Source: an uncultured Coriobacteriia bacterium (GTDB taxonomy: Bacteria; Actinomycetota; Coriobacteriia; Anaerosomatales; PALSA-660). From it: a stretch of DNA of 64,000 nucleotides. Numbering within the stretch: position 1 is the stretch's first letter; each line of letters starts with the position of its first letter. The notes below the pieces were generated by a model, which did no database searches, was not told where the DNA came from, and worked only from the letters and a program-made list of their open reading frames with translations. The position numbers and the translations under genes were made by a program. This document shows positions 44,939 through 56,543 of this stretch, piece by piece. The stretch is from positions 129,021 through 193,020 of the forward strand of contig CAVSCJ010000007.1 in assembly GCA_963726435.1 (NCBI GenBank). The letters are read 5' to 3'.

Positions 44939-44987
44939 CGACAGAGGGAGCCCCGCGCGCAAGGCCGTCCGAGAAGGGGTTGGCGCC

Positions 44988-45605
44988 ATGAGACGCGTCT
45001 TGGCCTGGGCCAGCATCATCGGCGCATCGTTCTTCCTTGTCGCAGCCGTCGCTCTTCACATTCTGGCGCCGGAGGTCGATCCGATGCGCTATGGGTTGAG
45101 CTTCTACGCGCACTCGCGCTTTGGCTTCCTGATCGATCTTGCGATCGTGCTCATGGGCGTCTCGGCAATCACCCTGGCGCTTGCCTTGTGGCCGGCCAAG
45201 CCGTCAACCGCGGGCCGCCTCGGGTTGCTTCTCCTCATGGCCTTCGGGGTCACCGAGTTCGTGGCGGGCTTCTTCCCGGTTGACGCGCCGGGGGCTTCTC
45301 CAAGCCTCGCAGGTTCCATCCACAGCATCGCGGGCTACAACTTCCTTCTTGTTGTCGCTGCTGTCCTGCTCGTCGAGAAGAGTCGTTCCACGGACGGCGA
45401 CCCCGGTCATCCACGGCCGATCACTGTCCTGTTCGCGTGGCTCTTTCTCGCCTCCACGGTGCTCCTCTTCACGTTCAACGGCCCCCTCGTGGCGCTCGGC
45501 ATCGGGGGCGCCATTCAGCGCGTGTTCTTCGTGGTGCTGATCGCGTGGATCCTGCTCAAGGCCATGCCGCTTGTGCGGACTGAGGCGCCAAACTTGGCCG
45601 CCTAG
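44988..45605 (+). CDS. DUF998-like polytopic membrane protein
   Basis: 205-aa ORF with six hydrophobic segments. Family assignment is by pattern only. Confidence 0.5.
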   Translation: MRRVLAWASIIGASFFLVAAVALHILAPEVDPMRYGLSFYAHSRFGFLIDLAIVLMGVSAITLALALWPAKPSTAGRLGLLLLMAFGVTEFVAGFFPVDAPGASPSLAGSIHSIAGYNFLLVVAAVLLVEKSRSTDGDPGHPRPITVLFAWLFLASTVLLFTFNGPLVALGIGGAIQRVFFVVLIAWILLKAMPLVRTEAPNLAA

Positions 45606-45961
45606 TCCCGGGCGGCTTGACCAGCGGTCGAAGTGGGCGACCTCGCGGACACGTTCATCGAGGGACGGAAGCAGCCCGCGAGCGTCTTCTTCGAGACCGC
45701 GTGCGGCTATTCCCGTGGGGGCACGGTTACCTACACCAAGGACGGGATCGTCGCAGCGACGATCTACATCGCCCCGCCCGCCGGGCCCTAGCCGGGACGG
45801 GCCGTCGCCAGCGGGATCGCGGCGCCCCGGCGGCCGGACCGCCGTGGGTGATCGCCGATGGCTCCGCTCGCTCGGCACGCATCGAGGGCGGGGAATCGTC
45901 GGGGGACGGTTCGGCTCGTGTCAGGCCCGCGCGCGACGCTGAACTCGGCGGTCGTCCGCGT

Positions 45962-46000
45962 GGGTTGTCACTTGACAACCCACTCTAGGCCGCGTAGCCT
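45962..46000 (+). promoter_or_regulatory. Sigma70-like promoter embedded in a perfect palindrome
   Basis: GGGTTGTCA-CT-TGACAACCC (45962-45981) contains TTGACA (45972-77). After a 17-nt spacer comes TAGCCT (45995-46000). It lies 22 nt upstream of the 46022 ORF. Confidence 0.55.
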
Positions 46001-46021
46001 CCGGAAAGGGAACGAGCACAC

Positions 46022-46285
46022 GTGGCCAGAAGGCGACATCCCGATCCCCACATAGAAGGCGCCCTGCGACATGCGGAGCGGAAGGGCTGGCGGGTCGAGC
46101 CGACGGGCAAGAGCTCGCACGCGTGGGGTCGACTCTACTGCCCGCACAACGATCCCTACTGCCGGTGTGGCGAGTTCTGTGTGACGAGCATCAGCGGGAC
46201 GCCGCGCGATCCCGAGAACCAGGCCCGGCAGATCGTGCGCAGGGTCGACGCCTGCAGTGGCGGCAAGTCCGCTGAAGAGGACTGA
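46022..46285 (+). CDS. Small Cys-rich HicA-like protein (putative toxin)
   Basis: KGWRVEPTGKSSHAWGRLYCP...CRCGEFCV. The resemblance to the YcfA/HicA fold is by motif only. Confidence 0.45.
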   Translation: MARRRHPDPHIEGALRHAERKGWRVEPTGKSSHAWGRLYCPHNDPYCRCGEFCVTSISGTPRDPENQARQIVRRVDACSGGKSAEED

Positions 46286-46294
46286 GAGCGGGAG

Positions 46295-46834
46295 GTGCAA
46301 GGACCGATGAAGGAATACGAGTTCACGCTGCGCTTCACGCTGCCCTCGGTCGATGGCGACCTCGATGATCTCGTCGAGCGACTCGGCGAGGGCGGATGCG
46401 ACGACGCTCTCGTCGGCATCGGGCATCCGGGGCGCATCGCCCTCGACTTCACCCGGAACGCGGATTCGGCTTCCGAGGCCGTCTTCAGCGCTGTCGCCGA
46501 TGTCTCGCGTGCGTTGCCCGGCGCGACGCTTGCGGAGGTCGCGCCCGACCTGGTCGGCATCACGGACGTGGCGGATCTGGTCGGCTGCTCGCGGCAGAAC
46601 ATCCGGCAGATGATGATCGCCGCCGGGTCCGGGGCGCCGGTGCCGGTCCATGAGGGCAGCCCGTCCGTGTGGCATCTCGCGCCCGTGCTCAGCTGGCTCG
46701 CGCTCGCGAAGGGCTATCGAGTCGAGCAGTCGCTGCTGGACGTCGCGTCGATCGCGATGCAGCTCAACCTCGCCATCGATGCCCGCTGCGCCGACTCCGT
46801 GGTTCAGGAACAGATCCGGACGCTTCTCGCGTAG
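46295..46834 (+). CDS. DNA-binding protein (HicB-like N-terminal half plus excisionase-type HTH), putative antitoxin/regulator
   Basis: KEYEFTLRFTLP... then ITDVADLVGCSRQNIRQM. It starts 9 nt after the preceding ORF. Confidence 0.5.
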   Translation: MQGPMKEYEFTLRFTLPSVDGDLDDLVERLGEGGCDDALVGIGHPGRIALDFTRNADSASEAVFSAVADVSRALPGATLAEVAPDLVGITDVADLVGCSRQNIRQMMIAAGSGAPVPVHEGSPSVWHLAPVLSWLALAKGYRVEQSLLDVASIAMQLNLAIDARCADSVVQEQIRTLLA

Positions 46835-46988
46835 GCGTGCTGCGGTCCGCGCTTCACTCGTTTCCCTGCGCCACGCACGCCATCTCCGTTTCTTCACCAA
46901 ATCTCGGACAAATAGCATATTCTGGTACACGGACCGGAGCGGGGAGGACTTCGGCCTTCAGTCGAATATGCGAAATGTGAGGTGGACT

Positions 46989-48044
46989 ATGCCCCCAAGA
47001 CTGTCTGCCCAGGCGCCCCGAGAGTGGATCGCGCGCCATCCGCTGGCCAGCTTCATCGTCTTGGCCTACGCGATCTCCTGGACAGCGTGGCCGCTGTCGT
47101 ACGTGTTCGATCTCGGTGTGAGCAACGGGTTCGGCATCATCGGATCACTCGGCCCCGCGCTGGCTGCAGTGATCGTCTGCGCCCTGGCGAGTTCCGAGAA
47201 GTCGGAGCCCAGTCGTAGCAGGTGGTGGCTGTTCGCGGGTGCCGGCGCGTTCGCCTTGGCGGTCATGGTGCTGCGCAGACTGTGGATCACCCCGGCATGG
47301 TTGGCTGTCGCCGGCAAGGTCACGACCACGTCCGCCTTCCCCACGCCGATGGCCCTGCCCGTCGATGTGCTGGCCGCGGTCGCCGTGGCACTCATCATCT
47401 CGGGAGTCCGCTCCCGGCGACCGGGCGTCCGTGGCCTTCTGCGCTCACTCGACCTGCGCGCCTACCCCGTGAGGTGGTACTGGTGGGCCATCGCGATAGG
47501 GGCGTACCCGGTCGTCATGGTCGTGAGTGCAGCCGCCTCGTCACAGCTCGGGCTGCCCGTGTCGGTCCCGCAGCTGTCCGGAGTGTGGTACCTGCTCGCG
47601 CTGGATGTGGTCCTGACTCTTCTGTACCTCATGATCGGCGGAGGCGGTCTCGAGGAGCCGGGGTGGCGCGGCCTCGCGCTGCCCTTGCTGCAGAAGCGCA
47701 GTCGGCCCTTGCGCGCCAGCCTCATCCTGGCTGTGATCTGGGCGCTGTGGCACTTGCCGTTGCTGCTGCTCGAGGGCGCTTCGCCGGTCGCCATCGTTCC
47801 CTACCTGCTGCTGGAAGTCGTCCCGCTCGCGATCCTGTTCACCGCGGTGTTCGGCCTGACCAAGGGCAGTCTCCCGGTGGTCATCCTGCTGCACGCCTCG
47901 ATCAACGTCGCGCCGATCTTCCTGCCGACCGCAGGGATCGGGACGATCGTGTTCCTGGTTCTCATGATCGGCGTGGCGGTCTGGATGTGGCGATCTCCCC
48001 AGACGTTCGCGGCAGGCGGATCGAGTGTTGCCCTGCAAGACTGA
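46989..48044 (+). CDS. CPBP (CAAX/Abi-type) intramembrane metalloprotease
   Basis: GGGLEEPGWRGLALPLL, IWALWHLPLL, LLHASIN. ATG 46989. Confidence 0.75.
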   Translation: MPPRLSAQAPREWIARHPLASFIVLAYAISWTAWPLSYVFDLGVSNGFGIIGSLGPALAAVIVCALASSEKSEPSRSRWWLFAGAGAFALAVMVLRRLWITPAWLAVAGKVTTTSAFPTPMALPVDVLAAVAVALIISGVRSRRPGVRGLLRSLDLRAYPVRWYWWAIAIGAYPVVMVVSAAASSQLGLPVSVPQLSGVWYLLALDVVLTLLYLMIGGGGLEEPGWRGLALPLLQKRSRPLRASLILAVIWALWHLPLLLLEGASPVAIVPYLLLEVVPLAILFTAVFGLTKGSLPVVILLHASINVAPIFLPTAGIGTIVFLVLMIGVAVWMWRSPQTFAAGGSSVALQD

Positions 48045-48067
48045 CGAGCGAGATCCGCCACGGCGGA

Positions 48068-48176
48068 GGGGCGGGTCTGCGTCGTGTAAGGCTAGCCGGG
48101 TAGTGAGAGTGGGCTGGTGGTACGCTGAGTCGAGGGATCTGGGGTGCTGCGCAGACCGCTGAATCACCAGTTGGAG
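48068..48176 (+). repeat. About 105-bp repeat, copy 2, ending in GTTGGAG at a cassette boundary
   Basis: See copy 1. The terminal GTTGGAGCG matches the complement of CGCTCTAAC (48656-64), the attC start of the next cassette, with one mismatch. Confidence 0.7.
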
Positions 48177-48189
48177 CGAATGGGATGAC

Positions 48190-48663
48190 GTGGCGGGTGT
48201 CGAGATACGAGCTGCCAGCGCTTCGGAGGCATGCGCGCTGACAGAGCTCGCGCAGGCAGCGAAGGCTCACTGGGGATACGAGCCGTCGCTGCTCGACCTG
48301 TGGGCCCCGCAACTCACTCTCACGCCGGACTACATCTGCGCTCATGATGTCTGGGTTGCGTCCATGGGGGATGGTGCCGTCGGATTCTACGCACTTGAGT
48401 CGCGCGACAGTGTCATGGAGTTGGAGCATCTGTGGGTGAATCCGCGCTGGATGGGGCAGGGGATCGGGCGCGCGCTGTTCGAGCACGCCGTCCTGCGAGC
48501 GCGGGCGGCATGCGCGGTGCAACTGCGTGTCGTGTCGGACCCGAACGCGGAGAGGTTCTACCTGCGGATGGGAGCGCGCCGCGTCGGTCAGCAGGAGTCG
48601 ACGCCTAAGGGTCGACAGCTACCGGTGCTGCTGCTCGACCTTGCCGGTGGCCCATCGCTCTAA
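48190..48663 (+). CDS. GNAT N-acetyltransferase (cassette)
   Basis: LWVNPRWMGQGIGRALFEHAV, FYLRMG. The stop codon TAA lies inside R'' of its attC. Confidence 0.8.
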   Translation: MAGVEIRAASASEACALTELAQAAKAHWGYEPSLLDLWAPQLTLTPDYICAHDVWVASMGDGAVGFYALESRDSVMELEHLWVNPRWMGQGIGRALFEHAVLRARAACAVQLRVVSDPNAERFYLRMGARRVGQQESTPKGRQLPVLLLDLAGGPSL

Positions 48664-48755
48664 CACGCGCATCCAGCAGACTCGGCGCTCGCAATGTAGA
48701 CTCGGCTCGACAGCGGATCGCTGCGCCTCGCAGCTGATGCGCTACAACGTCAGGC
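48658..48755 (+). repeat. attC site
   Basis: CTCTAAC...GCGCATCCAGCAG / CGCAGCTGATGCGC...GTCAGGC. Confidence 0.8.
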
Positions 48756-48778
48756 CGAACGACCAGGCAGGTTGCTGA

Positions 48779-49330
48779 GTGAGCATCCGAATCTCTAATC
48801 CAGATGAGACTCTGCGCGACGCGTTCCTGCGCATGCTCGACGACTACGATGCCCGTGATGCGCTCAACTCCGAGCGCTTCTCGAGTGCGCGTTCCGACTT
48901 CAGCGCATACGTAACGGGTCTGCGGGATGAGGAACGCGGACTTGGACTGGAAGACGGTTTCGTGCCCTGTTCTCATCGATGGCTGCTGGATGAGCAGGGC
49001 GAGCTTGTTGCCATCGTGCGTGTCCGGCACAGCCTCGACCACCCGTTTCTGGCCGAGCAGGGCGGACATATCGGCTATGACGTTCCCCCGTCATCGCGCG
49101 GGCGCGGCCATGGTAGCGCAGCTCTTCGAGCTGGATTGGCACGAGCGCACGAGCTTGGTCTGACGCGTGTGCTTGTGTGTGCTTCGGCGAACAACTCAGC
49201 GTCGTGCGCCGTGATCGAGAGTTGCGGCGGACTACTCGAGAGGGAACTCCATTCGGACCATTTCGGCTGCGTTGTCCGCCGGTACTGGATTGAGCTCTTG
49301 CCAACGGCGAGCAGCGGCGAGCCGGCCTAA
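48779..49330 (+). CDS. GNAT-like acetyltransferase (cassette), paralogue of 50832..51377
   Basis: GGHIGYDVPPSSRGRGHGSAAL. The TAA stop lies inside R''. Confidence 0.7.
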   Translation: MSIRISNPDETLRDAFLRMLDDYDARDALNSERFSSARSDFSAYVTGLRDEERGLGLEDGFVPCSHRWLLDEQGELVAIVRVRHSLDHPFLAEQGGHIGYDVPPSSRGRGHGSAALRAGLARAHELGLTRVLVCASANNSASCAVIESCGGLLERELHSDHFGCVVRRYWIELLPTASSGEPA

Positions 49331-49412
49331 CAGGCGGATCAAGCTGGCGGCCAGGAGGTGTACGCTCTGAGAGAGGCGGAGAAGCCGCAGCTTATCCGCT
49401 AGCACGTTAGGC
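49325..49412 (+). repeat. attC site
   Basis: GCCTAAC...GCGGATCAAGCTGGCGGC / GCCGCAGCTTATCCGC...GTTAGGC, with two bulged bases. Confidence 0.85.
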
Positions 49413-49449
49413 GGTCGCCGCCAAGCGGCGTTGAGTCGGGGAGGGCACG

Positions 49450-50715
49450 ATGAGGACGGCTAAGGCGGCACTGGCCATTCCAGCGGACCCAACTGTGTCG
49501 CCGGGTCCTGGGCGCCTCGTGTTCATAGACAACCTTCGCTACCTCATGGTGGTGTTGGTCGTCGTGTTCCACTCCGTGGCAGCGTACGCCGTCATCGCGT
49601 CGCATTGGCCGGTCCACGACACCACGGCCATCGCCGCGACCGTCATCCGCGAGTTCCTCGACGTGTTCTTGATGCCCGTGATGTTCTTCGCTGCCGGCTA
49701 CTTCGCGCTGCCCTCACTTCTCAAGCACGGTCAGCTGGAGTTCCTCAAGGACAAGGTGCGTCGGCTGCTCGTCCCATGGGCGCTCGCGGTCTTCGTCGTC
49801 CTGCCTCTCGTGCTCTACGGCAACCAGACAGCGACGGTCATTCGGCCTTTCCGGCGGTACTGGCTTACGTACGTGGCCAGCTTCCAGACGCGTCTCCGCC
49901 CCTCTGCGGTAACGGTGGGAATCACGACCCAGGCGGTCTACTGGTTCATCTCGCTGCTGTTCGCGTTCTTCGCCGGATTCGCGCTGATTCAGCTGATGAG
50001 AAGCCGGATGCGCGGCGGCGACACGGTTACCGATCACAGGCCGAATCCGGTTTGCTCCGTGTTCGGGGCGCTGGTCACCTTCGGGTTGGTGACCTCGGCC
50101 GCCTACTTCGCGCTCCTGCTCGTGGTCCCCGATTCGAGCTGGTTCACGCTCTCCGCGTTCCTCGAGTTCCAGGTGACGAGGCTGGTGCCTTTCGTCGGCT
50201 GTTTCGCGCTCGGCGTTTGGGCGCAATCGCACCGCTGGTTCGCCTATCGAAAACCGCTGGGTTCTCTCGCCGTCTGGGGCGCGGTCAGCGTGGTGCTCTC
50301 CGCGGCGTATCTCTGGTTCGGCCAGCCCATGTTCGCCGACGTGTCGGGGACCGCTCACTTCTCGGTCGGCTACCTGCTGGGCTTCGCCTTCCTGCGGTCG
50401 TTCCTGGTGTTGTCGCTGCTCGTCTTCCTCGTCTCGTTCGGCGTGGGCAACTGGGATCAGGCGAGCCGTGTCGACCGACAACTAGCGTCGTCGTCGTACG
50501 ACGTCTACTTGGTCCACTTCCTCATCGTGGTAGCGCTCCAGGAGGCGCTTGTGGAGTGGGTGGGCGGCCCGGTTGCGGCGAAGGCCGCGATCGTGTTCGT
50601 TGCCTCGCTCGGGCTTAGCGTCGCGATCAGCCGATGGATCCTTGCGCGGCACTCCCGCGCCTTCGCGGTCGCGATCCTGGCGCTGTTCGCGTTCTGCCTC
50701 GTTGTTCGTCCTTAG
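49450..50715 (+). CDS. Acyltransferase family 3 (OafA-like) membrane protein (cassette)
   Basis: FIDNLRYLMVVLVVVFHS. About 10 TM segments. Confidence 0.75.
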   Translation: MRTAKAALAIPADPTVSPGPGRLVFIDNLRYLMVVLVVVFHSVAAYAVIASHWPVHDTTAIAATVIREFLDVFLMPVMFFAAGYFALPSLLKHGQLEFLKDKVRRLLVPWALAVFVVLPLVLYGNQTATVIRPFRRYWLTYVASFQTRLRPSAVTVGITTQAVYWFISLLFAFFAGFALIQLMRSRMRGGDTVTDHRPNPVCSVFGALVTFGLVTSAAYFALLLVVPDSSWFTLSAFLEFQVTRLVPFVGCFALGVWAQSHRWFAYRKPLGSLAVWGAVSVVLSAAYLWFGQPMFADVSGTAHFSVGYLLGFAFLRSFLVLSLLVFLVSFGVGNWDQASRVDRQLASSSYDVYLVHFLIVVALQEALVEWVGGPVAAKAAIVFVASLGLSVAISRWILARHSRAFAVAILALFAFCLVVRP

Positions 50716-50730
50716 GGTGGAAGCCGCGCT

Positions 50731-50817
50731 GCCCAACAAGCGCTTCCATCTGACGGCCAGAAGCGCTAGCTTCGAAGTGAGGCGCAAGGCCGCAGCTGAA
50801 GCGCAACCACGTTAGGC
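50731..50817 (+). repeat. attC site
   Basis: GCCCAAC...GCGCTTCCATCTGACGGCC / GGCCGCAGCTGAAGCGC...GTTAGGC. Confidence 0.85.
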
Positions 50818-50831
50818 CGACTGACATAGAG

Positions 50832-51377
50832 GTGAGCACGGGCATGCTGCGCGTCTCCCCACCTGATAAGGCGTACTCGGAAGCGTTCATTCGGATGTTG
50901 GATGACTACGCCGCGAATGATCCCGCGCCCGGGGAGCAATTCTCGGCTGGACGGCTCGACTTCGGAGCGTACGTCGCGAAGTTGCGCGACGAGGAGCGCG
51001 GCGTTGGGCTGCCGGACGGCTACGTGCCCTGCTCTCACCGTTGGCTGATCGACCGCGGGGAGATTGCGGGCGTCGTGCGCGTTCGGCACAGCATCGCTCA
51101 CCCGCTACTGTCGCAAGAGGGCGGTCACATCGGATACGACATTCCGCCGTCGTGCAGGCGTCGCGGCAACGGGTTGGCCGCCCTCGTCGTCGGGCTGGAC
51201 CATGCGAGTGAGCTTCGGCTTACCCGCGTACTACTGTGTGCGGCCGCGAGCAACACGCCGTCGCGCGCAATCATCGAAAGGTGTGGCGGGCGGCTCGAGA
51301 GCGAGCACTACTCGAGACGCCTCGGGTGCGCAGTCTGCCGATACTGGATCGACGTACCGCAATCCCCAGCGGCCTAA
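50832..51377 (+). CDS. GNAT-like acetyltransferase (cassette), paralogue of 48779..49330
   Basis: GGHIGYDIPPSCRRRGNG. Collinear similarity to the 48779 product. The TAA stop lies inside R''. Confidence 0.7.
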   Translation: MSTGMLRVSPPDKAYSEAFIRMLDDYAANDPAPGEQFSAGRLDFGAYVAKLRDEERGVGLPDGYVPCSHRWLIDRGEIAGVVRVRHSIAHPLLSQEGGHIGYDIPPSCRRRGNGLAALVVGLDHASELRLTRVLLCAAASNTPSRAIIERCGGRLESEHYSRRLGCAVCRYWIDVPQSPAA

Positions 51378-51433
51378 CAAGCGCATCATTAGTGTCACTC
51401 TGCCCCCGTCGGGATGCCTGACGTTCGTCAGGT
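51372..51433 (+). repeat. attC site, either left portion or a complete 62-bp site; its relation to the IS is ambiguous
   Basis: R'' GCCTAAC (51372-78; CGGCCTAAC is a 9/9 complement of the cassette start GTTAGGCCG at 50811). L'' AAGCGCATC ... GATGC. GTCAGGT at 51427-33. Confidence 0.6.
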
Positions 51434-52737
51434 AGCCTCGGTCTCGACGGCGGGGTGACCCGAATCGGATCTGTCGCCTTCATGGCTGACTTTCAGGTGT
51501 TATGTCCCCTGCCGCCGGGAACCGAGGGGTCGTCGTCGTGACCTGATAGGAGCCTGGCCTAGAGGCCCCAGCTAAGGCGTGTCCGCCGACGATCCCCGAG
51601 CTCGGATGCCTCCGACGGAAGGGGACGGTCATGATCGTAGTCGGGATAGACCCGCACATGAAGACCCACACGGCGGTCGCCGTCGATGCGGTTACGGGCG
51701 TGAGCATCGCCGAGAGGACCGTCACCTGTGACGGTACCGGGCACGACGAGCTGCTCGCCTGGGCGAGGGGTCTGGATGCGGATCGCCGCTTCGCTATCGA
51801 GGACTGCCGACACGTTTCGGGAAGGCTCGAGCGCCACCTGCTCCCAAGGGGAGAGCGGGTGGTGCGTGTGCCGCCCAAGATGATGGCAGGGGCGCGTTCC
51901 TCAGCACGCACCTACGGCAAGTCGGACCCGATCGACGCGGCGTGCGTGGCTCGCGCCGCGCTGCGTGAGCCCGATCTGCCAGAAGCTGTGCTGACGGGTC
52001 CCGAACACGACGTGCGCCTGCTCTCCGACCACCGCGACGACCTCGTTGACGAGCGCAAACGCATCCAGAAGCGCCTGAGGTGGAACTGCCACGACCTCGA
52101 GGTGGGACTCGAGCTGCCGCCGAGGGTGCTGGACCGCTACGTGTGGCTGGACCGGCTGGAGGCGGCGCTGCGCGCATTGCCGCAGACCATGCGCCGGCGT
52201 GTCGCGCTCGACCAGCTCTCGCGCTGTCGCGAACTCACGAGAGAGATCCGCTCGCTCGAACGCGAGATCCGCGGGCTCATGCGTGACCTCGCACCCGACC
52301 TGCTCGCCATCCCGGGCTGCTCGGCCCTTTGCGCCGCCCAGCTCGTCGGGCAGACCGCGGGGGCCTCGCGCTTCAGAAGCGAGTCCGCCTTCGCGATGCA
52401 CACGGGATGCGCACCGCTGCCGGTGTCCTCGGGCAAGTCGACGCGCCACCGCCTCAATCGATGCGGAAACCGACGCCTCAACTCCACGATCCACATGATC
52501 GCGGTAACCCAGGCCAGGATGCACCCGCCTGCGATCGCCTACATGGAGCGCAAACAGGCCGAGGGGATGAGCTACCGAGAGGCACTGCGCTGCCTCAAGC
52601 GACACATCGCCCGGGTGGTCTTCAAGACGATGCAGCGAGCGGAGCACCTGCAGGCGGGGGAGGTCGATATCGGCAACCTTCCGCCCAAGTTCTATCGCCG
52701 TTGCCGTGTAGGATTGACATAGGAGCAACACCTGACG
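51417..52737 (+). mobile_element. IS110-family insertion sequence (ends approximate)
   Basis: The DEDD/Transposase_20 gene is flanked by the 7-nt direct repeat CCTGACG (51417-23 and 52731-37). The left end has about 208 nt of non-coding sequence and the right end about 10-15 nt. TCAGGTGTT (about 51492) and AACACCTGA (52727-35) form an inverted pair. Confidence 0.7.
51631..52722 (+). CDS. IS110-family (DEDD) transposase/recombinase
   Basis: MIVVGIDPHMKTHTAVAVD. C-terminal LLAIPGCSALCAAQLVGQTAGASRFRSESAFAMHTGCAPLPVSSGKSTRHRLNRCGNRRLN. Confidence 0.9.
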   Translation: MIVVGIDPHMKTHTAVAVDAVTGVSIAERTVTCDGTGHDELLAWARGLDADRRFAIEDCRHVSGRLERHLLPRGERVVRVPPKMMAGARSSARTYGKSDPIDAACVARAALREPDLPEAVLTGPEHDVRLLSDHRDDLVDERKRIQKRLRWNCHDLEVGLELPPRVLDRYVWLDRLEAALRALPQTMRRRVALDQLSRCRELTREIRSLEREIRGLMRDLAPDLLAIPGCSALCAAQLVGQTAGASRFRSESAFAMHTGCAPLPVSSGKSTRHRLNRCGNRRLNSTIHMIAVTQARMHPPAIAYMERKQAEGMSYREALRCLKRHIARVVFKTMQRAEHLQAGEVDIGNLPPKFYRRCRVGLT

Positions 52738-52772
52738 CGCTTCGCTCGCAGGTTATCCGTAAGCCGTTAGCC
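52738..52772 (+). repeat. attC right portion with R' GTTAGCC
   Basis: GCGCTT (complement of AAGCGC at 51379-84) ... GTTAGCC (52766-72). GTTAGCCAG is a 9/9 complement of CTGGCTAAC at 54182-90. Confidence 0.55.
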
Positions 52773-52785
52773 AGAGGGGGGACGC

Positions 52786-53508
52786 ATGGGGATTCTCTAC
52801 CCTGCGATGAAACGTTGTCCGGAATGCGGGCAAATTGCCGTAGCACCGGATTACTTCCACGATGGTGACTACTGCTTCCCAAGTCACGGTGGTTGCGGCC
52901 ACCATTTCCCCAATTTGACCATCACAGCAGACGGCCTCACGAAGGGGATGGCACTTGACCCCTACAAACACCCCGGCTCCGGCTATTCCTTCTTTGGCGG
53001 GTTGGTTCACGAGCTCAAGTACTACACCACTCTGTCCAACGCACAGAAACGCGCCCTAGTCCATAAGGCCGTTGTCGAGATCGGGAGACGGGGGGCCGTC
53101 GAGACCCTGGTCGGGAACGCCAGGAACTTGCTAGTTGTTCCAGCACCATCTTCTAAGCACAGGACTGTTCAGCACGTGTATGAGATAGCCAGGGGCGTAG
53201 CTGGCTCGCGGTATCAGTACCTTGAGGCTCTAGTGAAGTCCACGAGTACTGAGTCAAAGACCATGACGCACGGCGGCAAGTACCAGAGAGGGGACTTCCG
53301 CTGCAACTACCTCTTGAATGGTTACTCAGTTCTCATTGTTGATGATACGTATGGAGAAGGCGCAACTCTGGAGGCTTGCATAGACGTGCTGCGCACATCA
53401 AAGGCCGACGACGTCTACTTCCTGTCACTCTGCAAAAACATGGGCGGCGGTATCAAACAGTCGGACGCGAACCCAGGCATCATCTTCGATGACGATGTCC
53501 CGTTCTGA
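52786..53508 (+). CDS. ComF-like phosphoribosyltransferase-domain protein with an N-terminal zinc ribbon (cassette)
   Basis: CPECG...C..SHGGCGHH. VVPAPSSKHR. PRT loop VLIVDDTYGEGATL. RBS AGAGGGGGG. Spot count 53 G+C in the first 100 nt. Confidence 0.7.
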   Translation: MGILYPAMKRCPECGQIAVAPDYFHDGDYCFPSHGGCGHHFPNLTITADGLTKGMALDPYKHPGSGYSFFGGLVHELKYYTTLSNAQKRALVHKAVVEIGRRGAVETLVGNARNLLVVPAPSSKHRTVQHVYEIARGVAGSRYQYLEALVKSTSTESKTMTHGGKYQRGDFRCNYLLNGYSVLIVDDTYGEGATLEACIDVLRTSKADDVYFLSLCKNMGGGIKQSDANPGIIFDDDVPF

Positions 53509-53538
53509 TTCGTCACGGCTCTAGTAGCGGGAGCAACA

Positions 53539-54171
53539 ATGGCTGTTGTGTTCATCAGCGGGTCAAGAACGATTCCGTACCTGCCAGCAGAGGTCCAGGC
53601 AAGAGTCGACAACATGATCGACAACGGGCTGCACATCGTTGTCGGAGACTCAGAGCGAGGCGTGGACAATCTGATCGTGTCGTACCTCTACGATCGCGGC
53701 TACATCAACGTCTCCATCTACTCGGTCCACTCCAAGAGCAGAATTGGGCGGCTGCTGCCGGATTGGTCATTCCAGCGGATTGCTCCCGACATCCTCGCTC
53801 GACAGGACAAGAACGGGAACACCACGAATCGTCGCGAGCTCGAAACGTACAAAGACAGGGCCATGTGCGATGTGTGCAACTTCGCTCTCGTGATATGGCA
53901 GGACACCTACACGAACCCTAGATTCGGGCAGACATCGGTCAGCGCAGGCAGTCTCAGGAATGCAGTCCAGCTCTTGCTCGCCGGGAAGCCTGTCACCATG
54001 TACCACAGGAGCGAAGGCGACATGCTTGAGGAGGACTTCACACATCGCGAATTCAGATCGATCTCCGCATTGGAGGAGTTCGTGAAGAGTCTGGACGGCA
54101 TCGTGCAGGCGAGGTTCTCGAAGATGCTGAAGGACGAGTCGAAAATGGAGCAGCAGCATTTGGACCTCTGA
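53539..54171 (+). CDS. SLOG/DUF2493-like (DprA/LOG-type Rossmann) protein with a helical C-terminal extension (cassette)
   Basis: VVFISGSR...HIVVGDSERGVDNL...NFALVIWQD...SAGSLRNAVQLLLAGKPVTMY matches the 'GSR / GGA.GAD / WDG.S.GT / gKpV' pattern of that fold. Assigned by motif only. Confidence 0.5.
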   Translation: MAVVFISGSRTIPYLPAEVQARVDNMIDNGLHIVVGDSERGVDNLIVSYLYDRGYINVSIYSVHSKSRIGRLLPDWSFQRIAPDILARQDKNGNTTNRRELETYKDRAMCDVCNFALVIWQDTYTNPRFGQTSVSAGSLRNAVQLLLAGKPVTMYHRSEGDMLEEDFTHREFRSISALEEFVKSLDGIVQARFSKMLKDESKMEQQHLDL

Positions 54172-54183
54172 TGTTGGGGCCCT

Positions 54184-54243
54184 GGCTAACAATGAGATCG
54201 AGCGGCCTCACTGCGTTCGCCGCTCATCTCAAACACGTTAGGT
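54184..54243 (+). repeat. attC site (60-bp class)
   Basis: GGCTAAC...GAGATCGAGCGGC / GCCGCTCATCTC...GTTAGGT. Same class as 56484-56543. Confidence 0.88.
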
Positions 54244-54317
54244 GCGACGTTCGCCCTGGCGTACACGAGGCTTGTGACAGGGTAGTATCCTTGTCGCAGC
54301 CCAGATGGAGGGAATGC

Positions 54318-54530
54318 ATGTCGGTTTCACTGCTGATTGAACTGGAGCAGGAGAATGACGGCCGCTGGATTGCGGAGGTCGCCGATCTTCCTGGCGTCTT
54401 GGCATACGGCTCGACTCACGACGAAGCCATCGCACACGTTCAGGCACTCGCCCTCAGAGTGATCGCTGACCGCCTTGAGAACGAAGAGGCCGGGCGCGAG
54501 TATCTCAGCATCTCCTTCAACGCCGCGTGA
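54318..54530 (+). CDS. hicB: HicB-family antitoxin (cassette)
   Basis: LIELEQENDGRWIAEVADLPGVLAYGSTHDEAIAHVQAL. Confidence 0.85.
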   Translation: MSVSLLIELEQENDGRWIAEVADLPGVLAYGSTHDEAIAHVQALALRVIADRLENEEAGREYLSISFNAA

Positions 54531-54739
54531 GTGACTGGCCAAGCAGCAGCGCGAAGAAGGTTCTCGCCGCACTGCTCCGAATCGGATGGACGGTCAAACG
54601 CCAGACAGGTTCCCATCGCGTCCTTAGCCGCCCCGGTTGGTCCGACTTTGTCTTCGCATTCCACGATCGGGAACCGATCGGCCCGCGGATGCTCGCCCGA
54701 ATCGCAAAACACACTGGCCTCACACCAGACGACTTGTAG
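54527..54739 (+). CDS. hicA: HicA-family mRNA interferase toxin (cassette)
   Basis: AKKVLAALLRIGWTVKRQTGSHRVLSRPG. GTG overlaps the hicB stop. Confidence 0.85.
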   Translation: MSDWPSSSAKKVLAALLRIGWTVKRQTGSHRVLSRPGWSDFVFAFHDREPIGPRMLARIAKHTGLTPDDL

Positions 54740-54753
54740 CAGGCCTTGCGCGC

Positions 54754-54854
54754 ACCTAACCAGCGCGTCAAGTCGGACGGCGCGCCCTGGGAGCTAGAAT
54801 CGAAGGGCCGGGCGGCGAAAAGCGCGCCGCCGCTTACGCGCAACACCGTTAGCC
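54754..54854 (+). repeat. attC site (about 100-bp class)
   Basis: ACCTAAC...GCGCGTCAAGTCGGACGGCGCGCC / GGCGCGCCGCCGCTTACGCGC...GTTAGCC, with three bulged bases. CGCACCTAAC is a 10/10 complement of the cassette start at 54237. Confidence 0.9.
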
Positions 54855-55906: not shown

Positions 55907-56476
55907 TTGATCCTACGAACCCTGCTCATCGCCTCTGTGTTGTGCCTCGTTCTCGTGACCGGTTGCGCAGGCAGCAGAAGCCAATCGGCTGAACAACCTG
56001 TCACGAGCCAGGCGGCTCCAGCCGCCGCCGCGCCAGATCCCCTGGCGCCCATTTCTGCCTACATGGCGGACGCAAACAGGCTCATCAAGGAGCAGGAGAA
56101 GGCGATAGGCGATTGCACCCGCCTCTTGCTCAAGTACGAGCAACTCTCTTCCTACGACAAAGAGTCGCTTCACTTCGCGCTGAACGAGGTTGATTCTGCG
56201 ACTTCCTCATACGCGTCTCTGGCGCCTCCATCCTCTCTTGCCAAGGTGCATGGTCTAAACAGGCAGGCGATGGCCCAACTGGGAATCGCCCTGCGAAGTT
56301 ACAACCTCTACTTAGCCAGCAATCGCGTCATGCCTAGCGACATGAAGGCGGCGGAATCCAACTTCGCCGGCGCTGCCCTCTATCGCGACAAGGCGAACGA
56401 GGAGCTGCAGCGCGTCAGCAGCGACCTCGGGATTCAGCTCCGACCTTTCGCGGTGATTGACGTTGGTCAGTTCTAG
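55907..56476 (+). CDS. Lipoprotein, helical (cassette)
   Basis: RBS GAGGAG then TTG 55907. Lipobox LVTGC. Confidence 0.55.
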   Translation: MILRTLLIASVLCLVLVTGCAGSRSQSAEQPVTSQAAPAAAAPDPLAPISAYMADANRLIKEQEKAIGDCTRLLLKYEQLSSYDKESLHFALNEVDSATSSYASLAPPSSLAKVHGLNRQAMAQLGIALRSYNLYLASNRVMPSDMKAAESNFAGAALYRDKANEELQRVSSDLGIQLRPFAVIDVGQF

Positions 56477-56483
56477 AGGGGTG

Positions 56484-56543
56484 TGCTAACCAAGAGATCG
56501 AGCGGACTCACTTCGTTCGCCGCTCATCTCTAAACCGTTAGGT
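56484..56543 (+). repeat. attC site (60-bp class)
   Basis: TGCTAAC...GAGATCGAGCGGA / GCCGCTCATCTC...GTTAGGT. Confidence 0.88.

Follow-up and report, generated by a model that had tools for sequence, protein, structure and literature searches.

Here we describe a two-gene integron cassette found in a 64,000-nucleotide (nt) stretch of contig CAVSCJ010000007.1 from an uncultured Coriobacteriia bacterium; this whole stretch is referred to below as the window. Gene 1 of the cassette encodes a 240-amino-acid (aa) phosphoribosyltransferase (PRTase) of the ComF kind bearing a zinc ribbon, and gene 2, located directly downstream, encodes a 210-aa protein predicted to adopt the SLOG fold, which is the Rossmann-type core found in DprA. 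The comparison of both proteins and of their gene neighbourhoods with known systems leads us to consider it likely, largely by analogy, that the cassette is a mobile two-gene toxin–antitoxin (TA) or abortive-infection module of the PsyrTA/ShosTA type, reduced to its two core domains. The pairing of a PRTase with a DprA-like protein is of an already known kind; what is new is its minimal, integron-borne form, which escapes detection by current models. In particular, the current PADLOC models would not call the cassette because gene 2 has no match.

Both ShosTA and PsyrTA (RqlHI) consist of a PRTase-domain toxin and a DprA-homologous antitoxin (Millman et al., bioRxiv 10.1101/2022.05.11.491447), the same architecture being also stated in PMC11961720 and PMC12961424, and both have been shown to defend against phages (bioRxiv 10.1101/2022.05.11.491447; PMC11961720). 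The genotoxic part of RqlH is its PRTase domain, the D663A substitution abolishing toxicity, and RqlI contains a DprA/molybdenum cofactor (MoCo)-carrier-like region (PMC4670107). ShosT is a pyrophosphatase–PRTase fusion whose toxicity is abolished by D331A/D332A (PMC11961720). Its partner ShosA, comprising a SAM domain and a DprA-fold binder of single-stranded DNA (ssDNA), does not bind ShosT and does bind RecA; its instability depends on the C-terminus, and phages escape ShosTA through mutations in genes encoding SSB (single-stranded DNA-binding protein) or a primase-helicase.

The two proteins and their counterparts in known systems

Curated models matched gene 1 only below their cut-offs, and these weak matches all indicate a ComF-like type-I PRTase. 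Among the PADLOC models, gene 1 matched ShosT with an E-value of 1.1e-6 (profile positions 90-211 of 237) and PsyrT with 9.7e-6 (positions 528-685 of 689). The NCBIfam model comF (TIGR00201) was matched at 1.6e-5, with 24.9 bits vs. a cut-off of 233.55, and the Pfam models Pribosyltran and Zn_ribbon_3 at 4.4e-4 (below the cut-off) and 0.033, respectively. The AlphaFold2 (AF2) model of gene 1 (predicted local distance difference test score, pLDDT, 84.4) was compared with solved structures using Foldseek. The top match was ComFC of H. pylori (7p0h; E 3.5e-6, TMq 0.51), followed, after a run of HPRTs, by ShosT (8zvb, 8zvc and 8zvd) with a TMq of 0.47-0.50 over 198-213 columns. A direct sequence search of the solved-structure chains gave weak APRT matches only (E ~0.5), and the gene 1 family profile (A2) run against these chains was swamped by Sel1 repeats and of no use for classification; the family profile did match the PRTase end of three PsyrT proteins.

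The active-site elements of the PRTase are conserved in the 32 homologues of gene 1 found among 5.8 billion clusters, which are the basis of all conservation counts for this protein (Table 1). ComFC has a four-cysteine zinc finger at the position matching the ribbon of gene 1; it is an ssDNA binder and, in some species, a partner of DprA (PMC9005727). By analogy, the segment VVPAPSSKHR is assigned as a putative pyrophosphate (PPi)-binding loop. The aspartates D186 and D187 in the loop predicted to bind phosphoribosyl pyrophosphate (PRPP) are treated here as equivalent to D331/D332 of ShosT and, likewise, to D663 of RqlH. Gene 1 contains no pyrophosphatase-like hydrolase domain and no helicase domain, nor is a helicase gene present in the cassette.

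As for gene 2, no match at E ≤ 0.01 was found in Pfam, NCBIfam, PADLOC or PHROG. The AF2 model (pLDDT 90.7) has its first strand beginning at residue 3 and shows no N-terminal SAM(-like) domain and no helix-turn-helix (HTH). When this model was searched against the PDB with Foldseek, the top match was ShosA of E. coli APEC O1 (8zva; E 2.3e-3, probability 1.0), followed by the SLOG domain of ThsA, the N-terminal domains of TRPM channels, and LOG enzymes. Among viral proteins, the best matches were DUF2493, YAcAr ('YspA cpYpsA-related SLOG') and 'DprA-like' phage proteins. Judging by the predicted model, gene 2 is a SLOG-fold protein. An assignment to DprA proper (Pfam PF02481) was rejected: Pfam gave no match, and the hhalign comparison with E. 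coli Smf/DprA had a probability of 0.12 and an E-value of 0.48. A direct sequence search of the solved-structure chains gave nothing for gene 2, and its family profile (A1) gave chance matches only.

The motifs GSR, GDSxxGxD and SxGSLRN...PV of gene 2 are conserved in its homologues. An alignment of 23 sequences has R10, D37, D43, R68, K105, D106, R128 and R140 invariant and E39 conserved at 90% or more. The protein has 25 close relatives, and a search of 1.84 billion representative clusters with its family profile retrieved 1,314 at E ≤ 0.001. When 149 representatives of the family were examined, the only recurring Pfam matches were DprA (10 members) and YAcAr (4 members), and the only recurring PADLOC matches were PsyrA (13 members, best 2.7e-9) and ShosA (7 members); weak Pfam matches to DprA, YAcAr and YpsA occur among the family members. 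The match to the PsyrA model, where inspected (P0062, P0065), falls in an N-terminal extension. With a family this large and no curated model matching gene 2, defence pipelines probably under-count PsyrTA-like systems. The conserved C-terminus of gene 2, ...QQHLDL (...QATLDLG in the PsyrT-linked relatives), could be a degron, by analogy with ShosA.

Compared side by side, the cassette resembles PsyrTA in that a ComF-like PRTase with the same hood-plus-core layout lies directly upstream of a SLOG/DprA-like partner, and the gene 2 family is homologous in sequence to proteins located directly downstream of true PsyrT. It differs in that PsyrT is ~690-710 aa long and carries an N-terminal RecQ-like superfamily 2 (SF2) helicase, whereas gene 1 has the four-cysteine zinc ribbon in this place and an acidic C-terminal tip that is absent from three PsyrT sequences. 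RqlI/PsyrA, in turn, is ~400 aa long with N-terminal and HTH regions, whereas gene 2 comprises a 210-aa SLOG core with a helical tail. The likeness to ShosTA consists in the same combination of PRTase toxin and DprA-like antitoxin, ShosA being the best solved match of gene 2 and ShosT matching gene 1 over ~200 columns. However, ShosT is a 424-aa protein that lacks a zinc ribbon and carries a pyrophosphatase-like hydrolase domain at its N-terminus; only its PRTase part matches gene 1. ShosA has an N-terminal SAM domain, which gene 2 lacks, and a nine-stranded Rossmann domain. With the competence proteins, gene 1 shares the four-cysteine zinc finger and the PRPP-binding PRTase domain of ComFC, its best structural match, and gene 2 has the SLOG Rossmann core of DprA as well as its GSR and GxxxGxD motifs in the same register; in contrast to them, the scores lie far below the family cut-offs, the genes reside in a mobile low-GC cassette with no competence genes seen nearby, and gene 2 is devoid of the SAM and C-terminal domains of DprA.

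Relatives of the pair in other genomes

At all readable loci with a relative of gene 1, a relative of gene 2 is located directly downstream, in the order PRTase then SLOG. Adjacency and order are kept in the window and at loci L001, L006, L007/L008/L011, L009/L010 and L012; they are also kept at L002-L005 and L013-L015, where PsyrT replaces the short PRTase. A scan of GTDB species genomes with a closer alignment gave five species loci, all five with a PRTase-bearing gene immediately upstream; a number this small means that reference genomes seldom carry the close family. More distant gene 2 relatives in Collinsella and Enorma, sharing 34% identity with the query over 96% of its length, directly follow a 708-aa PsyrT whose match to the PADLOC PsyrT model spans the whole profile (8e-218). 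Moreover, the gene 2 family includes long forms of 390-606 aa with the SLOG domain at the C-terminus (~1e-40 to 1e-49 with the family profile), and the two long forms looked up, from Enterococcus and Basilea, directly follow PsyrT orthologues sharing 49-55% identity with the 708-aa PsyrT.

The neighbourhoods of these loci are rich in defence or TA genes. At L001, the pair resides in an integron-like array amid the TA cassettes HigB, YoeB, HicA, HepT/MNT and ParE. In an Actinomycetes metagenome-assembled genome (MAG; L007, L008 and L011), it directly follows a Drt2 reverse transcriptase (PADLOC 8e-142; L007:2994-5899). The Enterococcus long-form locus adjoins QatB/TatD genes, and in the window a hicA gene is immediately downstream of the cassette. 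In a Lactobacillales MAG (L012), the pair is found in a housekeeping context. As a separate observation, a 37-aa open reading frame (ORF) overlaps the start of the PRTase gene in L007. A reading of the pair as part of a retron of type III-A was considered and rejected: the match of gene 1 to the PADLOC model PRTase_III-A is weak (E 0.055), the reverse transcriptase of L007 is Drt2, which is a separate single-gene system, and no reverse transcriptase is found near the cassette of the window.

Of the remoter relatives of the two genes, the closest (40-45% and ~46% identity) are again adjacent and in the same order; they form the second half of an unnamed four-gene operon (L006:1017-6607; L009 and L010:903-6624). 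This operon encodes a DUF559 protein fused to a DpdF/PsyrT-like helicase (1,091-1,130 aa), a 226-aa coiled-coil membrane protein, a PRTase with Sel1 repeats and a zinc ribbon, and a SLOG protein. It differs from the cassette in the two extra genes, for the helicase and the membrane protein, and in its PRTase, which has an N-terminal Sel1 repeat and ends with DDDI[HY] rather than DDxxPF. The helicase of the operon matches the helicase part of PsyrT at 5.6e-64, and the operon looks like a split and expanded PsyrTA.

A phage contig from IMG/VR (L022:4986-5399) encodes a 137-aa SLOG protein that shares the VFISGSR / GDxxGAD start and has no PRTase neighbour; the gene adjoins an intein-like, large ribonucleotide-reductase-like ORF, annotated by eye only.

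These results bear on the preliminary description of the stretch, which had presented the cassette as a ComF-like PRTase with a zinc ribbon plus a SLOG/DUF2493-like Rossmann protein, a pairing that it did not recognise as a named system. Both protein assignments stand, gene 1 by the ComFC match and by the invariant cysteines and PRPP loop, gene 2 by its matches to ShosA, ThsA, TRPM and LOG in the PDB and to DUF2493, YAcAr and DprA-like proteins of viruses. The peptide motifs quoted there are all present in the two genes and are mostly conserved among the homologues, and the co-occurrence that it proposed to look for was found, the genes being adjacent at every readable locus with a gene 1 relative. 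Its view of the pairing as undescribed has to be given up, as ShosTA and PsyrTA have the same published architecture, gene 1 matches the PADLOC models of both toxins and relatives of gene 2 directly follow true PsyrT. The cassette represents instead the smallest natural form (240 + 210 aa) of the PRTase plus DprA-like module, and as such is convenient for asking what defence PRTases phosphoribosylate and how a SLOG protein counters them.

Proposed mode of action and alternative explanations

The domain identities and folds, the conserved active site, the homology to PsyrT partners, the fixed order and adjacency of the genes, the cassette structure and the defence- or TA-rich neighbourhoods are what the data show; from the likeness to RqlH/PsyrT and ShosT we infer which gene would be the toxin, how it would be neutralised, what would trigger it and that it would act against phages. 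Gene 1 is the presumed toxin, a PRPP-binding type-I PRTase of the ComF/PsyrT/ShosT clade with an N-terminal four-cysteine zinc ribbon, whose active site (D186, D187) would harm the cell by causing genotoxic stress or by disturbing purine/DNA metabolism. Gene 2 is the presumed antitoxin, a DprA-like SLOG protein that would be translated from the same transcript and would neutralise its partner either directly, by binding of the kind seen between RqlI and RqlH and between ComFC and DprA, or by an indirect route via ssDNA and RecA, in the manner of ShosA. The mildly acidic character of gene 2 and the reported interaction of ComFC with DprA incline us towards direct binding as in RqlI rather than the indirect ShosA mode. 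Phage infection or loss of the cassette would stop the synthesis of the antitoxin or titrate it, whereupon the PRTase would act and the cell would die or stall; within the integron array, the toxin–antitoxin property would also stabilise the array.

Several observations weigh against the assignment of the cassette to the PsyrTA/ShosTA type. Neither the PsyrA nor the ShosA model of PADLOC matches gene 2, and the Foldseek match of its model to ShosA is a modest one (E 2.3e-3, TMq 0.44). Comparing the gene 2 family to E. coli Smf by hhalign gave no significant match, even though the GSR and GxxRGxD motifs line up in register. Furthermore, the pI of gene 2 (~6) is unlike that expected of an ssDNA-binding antitoxin. 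As gene 1 has neither the pyrophosphatase domain that assists ShosT nor the helicase of PsyrT, its toxicity might be weaker or of another kind. In Erysipelothrix inopinata, a 238-aa gene 2 relative (P0078, L020:5001-5717) stands alone between dus and a grpB-like gene with no PRTase neighbour, so a PRTase does not accompany the SLOG family in every case. Finally, a consensus scan found no sigma-70-like promoter inside the cassette, such a scan being of little value at 56-66% GC.

The C-terminus of gene 1 offers a lead, not a finding, as to how a PRTase toxin could work without a helicase. The protein ends in an acidic tip on a disordered linker (pLDDT <50 for residues 225-240 in the AF2 model), this tail having a charge of -4 vs. 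a basic body with a pI of 8.6. The motif [DE][DE]x[ILVM]PF ends 9 of the 12 short-form homologues, the preceding linker being variable, and DDDI[HY] ends 14 of the 20 Sel1-containing long forms, i.e., those of the helicase operons; the tip is absent from the L012 homologue and from the three fused PsyrT sequences examined. The conserved C-terminal hexapeptide of SSB, DDDIPF, binds many genome-maintenance proteins (PMC5872125). The resemblance weakly suggests that the tip stands in for the fused helicase of PsyrT as a link to ssDNA and the SSB machinery, or else that it serves as a fold-back auto-inhibitor. One may go further and suppose, quite tentatively and with more doubt than belief, that the helicase-less toxin plugs into the SSB interactome through its tip. 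The tip would dock either onto SSB clients such as RecQ, PriA or RecO or, in the four-gene relatives, onto a partner helicase; alternatively, it would fold back on the basic, ComFC-like ssDNA-binding body until displaced by ssDNA. On this view the cassette would by itself sense abnormal ssDNA or replication intermediates, a mimic of the SSB tail taking the place of the RecQ-like helicase fused in PsyrT, and the toxin would be neutralised by the acidic SLOG partner binding to it directly and not through DNA repair. The tip thereby provides a concrete hypothesis that would link the module to the phage escape mutants.

A role in phage defence is not the only way to read a TA pair. The two genes might be purely an addiction (stabilisation) module, preventing the loss of the cassette from the array and having no role against phages or plasmids. 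This would agree with the abundance of classical TA cassettes in the arrays that carry the pair, namely those listed above for L001 and HicA in the window, and with the self-contained cassette form of the pair in two genomes. However, the pair is also found outside integrons beside Drt2, PsyrT-linked relatives of gene 2 are found beside Qat genes, and PsyrTA and ShosTA are anti-phage systems; addiction and defence are, besides, compatible roles. We regard addiction as the sole function as unlikely.

A PsyrTA/ShosTA-type module, in which the antitoxin acts by binding or through DNA repair, must also be weighed against control by catalysis. The PRTase could make an unusual or toxic ribonucleotide or phosphoribosylate a DNA base, and the SLOG protein could cleave the product in the way of the LOG phosphoribohydrolases. 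Pairs of a PRTase with a YpsA-type SLOG protein were noted earlier by computation (PMC6459960). The fold of gene 2 also matches the LOG enzymes 5its, 5zbl and 2a33, and the protein is not basic and contains the set of conserved polar residues given above. Nevertheless, the LOG catalytic motif PGGxGTxxE is absent from gene 2, where the equivalent segment is SAGSLRN, which we take to be closer to the DprA pattern; moreover, the closest solved structure is the non-enzymatic ShosA, and there is no defence PRTase with a known product. This makes an enzyme and counter-enzyme pair distinctly improbable. Still less credence, and indeed very little, can be given to a ComFC-DprA-like pair that would handle ssDNA and aid incoming DNA in transformation or conjugation with no role in conflict. 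The structural proximity of gene 1 to ComFC, the DprA-like fold of gene 2 and the properties of ComFC itself, which binds ssDNA and, in some species, interacts with DprA, speak for it. The comF score falling far short of its cut-off, the failure of the DprA Pfam model and of hhalign with gene 2, the lack of competence genes nearby and the position of the cassette, low in GC and mobile, in a TA-rich array speak against it, as does the partnership of the nearest relatives of gene 2 with PsyrT toxins.

The integron cassette and its surroundings

The two-gene unit is a genuine integron cassette. It is opened by the core site GTTAGCC at 52766 and closed by its own 60-bp attC, the length from T52767 to G54237 being 1,471 bp. 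The sequences GTTAGCCAG at 52766 and CTGGCTAAC at 54182 are exact reverse complements of each other (9/9 positions). The first bases of an integron cassette pair with the R'' box of the cassette's own attC, and this complementarity is not a matter of chance but the usual consequence of cassette circularisation. The attC contains R''/L''/L'/R' boxes arranged as an imperfect inverted repeat with a 13-bp stem and one bulged (extrahelical) base, and its bottom strand folds as a hairpin (z = -2.3). The homologous cassette in L001 opens with the same GTTAGCCAGGGGAGGG, and the pair there starts at the same core GTTAGCCAGG. Within the cassette, the two genes are separated by 30 nt, each preceded by a Shine-Dalgarno-like sequence (Table 1).

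The cassette belongs to an array of at least seven attC sites, all co-oriented on the + strand, at 49.3-56.8 kb, with matches to the R-box heptamers extending to ~41.9-58.3 kb. The interval 52773-54243 has the lowest G+C content of the array, 55.8%, vs. 59.9-67.3% in the other cassettes, 66.0% in the whole window and 68.5% in the region 1-41000; the first 100 nt of gene 1 have 53.0%. The 60-bp attC has a near-twin at 56484-56543 with the same layout and bulged base, the other attCs of the array being 87-101 bp long. Judged on composition and site type, the 60-bp attC and the low G+C content thus point to a foreign origin of the cassette. The near-twin closes a cassette with a 189-aa ORF (55907-56476), and these two cassettes may come from a common foreign source. 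The preliminary description had the cassette as cleanly delimited, with the length, the attC and the 9/9 complement given here, with two tightly spaced genes and with a G+C content lower than that of the host, and the present analysis bears it out on each of these counts. At least two genomes of a high-GC lineage carry the module as one integron cassette, although its relatives are in Gram-positive bacteria; this carriage lends support to the idea that small TA or defence modules are banked in integron arrays.

Table 1. Coordinates of the cassette, its genes and motifs, and of neighbouring features (positions in the 64,000-nt window)
Feature	Position	Strand	Basis or remark
R' core site GTTAGCC of the upstream attC	52766..52772	+	Cassette begins at T52767 by integron convention
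Shine-Dalgarno-like GAGGGGGG	52774..52781	+	4 nt upstream of gene 1 ATG; read from sequence
Gene 1, 240-aa ComF-like zinc-ribbon PRTase, presumed toxin	52786..53508	+	PADLOC, NCBIfam, Pfam, Foldseek
Four-cysteine zinc ribbon (C11, C14, C30, C37)	52816..52896	+	All four Cys invariant in 32 homologues
VVPAPSSKHR, ComF-type segment	53134..53163	+	P119, P121, R126 invariant; S122, S123 nearly so
PRPP-binding loop VLIVDDTYGEGATL (D186, D187)	53329..53370	+	DDTYGEGATL; D186, D187, T188, Y189, G192, A193, T194, L195 invariant
Acidic tip DDDVPF on disordered linker (residues 235-240)	53488..53505	+	Resembles SSB C-terminal hexapeptide DDDIPF
Shine-Dalgarno-like GGGAG	53529..53533	+	5 nt upstream of gene 2 ATG; read from sequence
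Gene 2, 210-aa SLOG (DprA/DUF2493-like) Rossmann protein with C-terminal helical tail, presumed antitoxin	53539..54171	+	AF2 model, Foldseek, homologues downstream of PsyrT
60-bp attC of the cassette	54184..54243	+	R'' GGCTAAC 54184-54190; R' GTTAGGT 54237-54243; recombination point after G54237
IS110-family transposase gene	51631..52722	+	Pfam DEDD_Tnp_IS110 2.6e-17, Transposase_20 7.9e-18; context, not part of the module
First unit, 4.4 kb	44986..49412		DUF998 44988-45605; Rce1-like CAAX protease 46650-48044; GNAT acetyltransferase 48779-49330
Second unit	49413..50817		Acyl_transf_3 membrane acyltransferase 49450-50715
Third unit	50818..52772		Second GNAT 50832-51377, ahead of the IS110 element

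A six-frame search of the 64-kb window for the box motifs of a tyrosine recombinase (IntI) found no integron integrase, nor was one found by Pfam scans of 20 long ORFs at 32.6-51.4 kb, and no attI/intI adjoins the array in the window. The long ORFs left of the array encode LysE, FTR1 and Rce1-like proteins. The array may be devoid of its own integrase, or the integrase may be located outside the 64 kb. Looking up the window's own proteins by exact sequence yielded neither names nor further context.

An IS110 element lies in or beside the attC preceding the cassette, flanked by a GCCTAAC R''-like box (51372) and the GTTAGCC R' box (52766). When the attC split by this element was rebuilt in silico, no deletion end-points gave a good hairpin, and the two halves pair poorly; the left half appears to be of another attC type than the right. 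This mismatch suggests an IS110 insertion followed by rearrangement or deletion. In L001:1-3550 there are six very regular attCs of 84-87 bp (CTAACAAGCGCATCCAGCGGACGGCC...), which open with bases (GCCTAACAAGCGCATC) that agree with the left half of the IS-split attC of the window at 51372, a similarity suggesting that the two organisms are related.

The next cassette on the right (54244-54854) carries a toxin–antitoxin pair, HicB-like (~54318-54530) and HicA (54527-54739; Pfam HicA_toxin 7e-12), and ends with a 101-bp attC. On the left, the interval 44986-52772 consists of three attC-bounded units, all of them near the G+C content of the host (Table 1).

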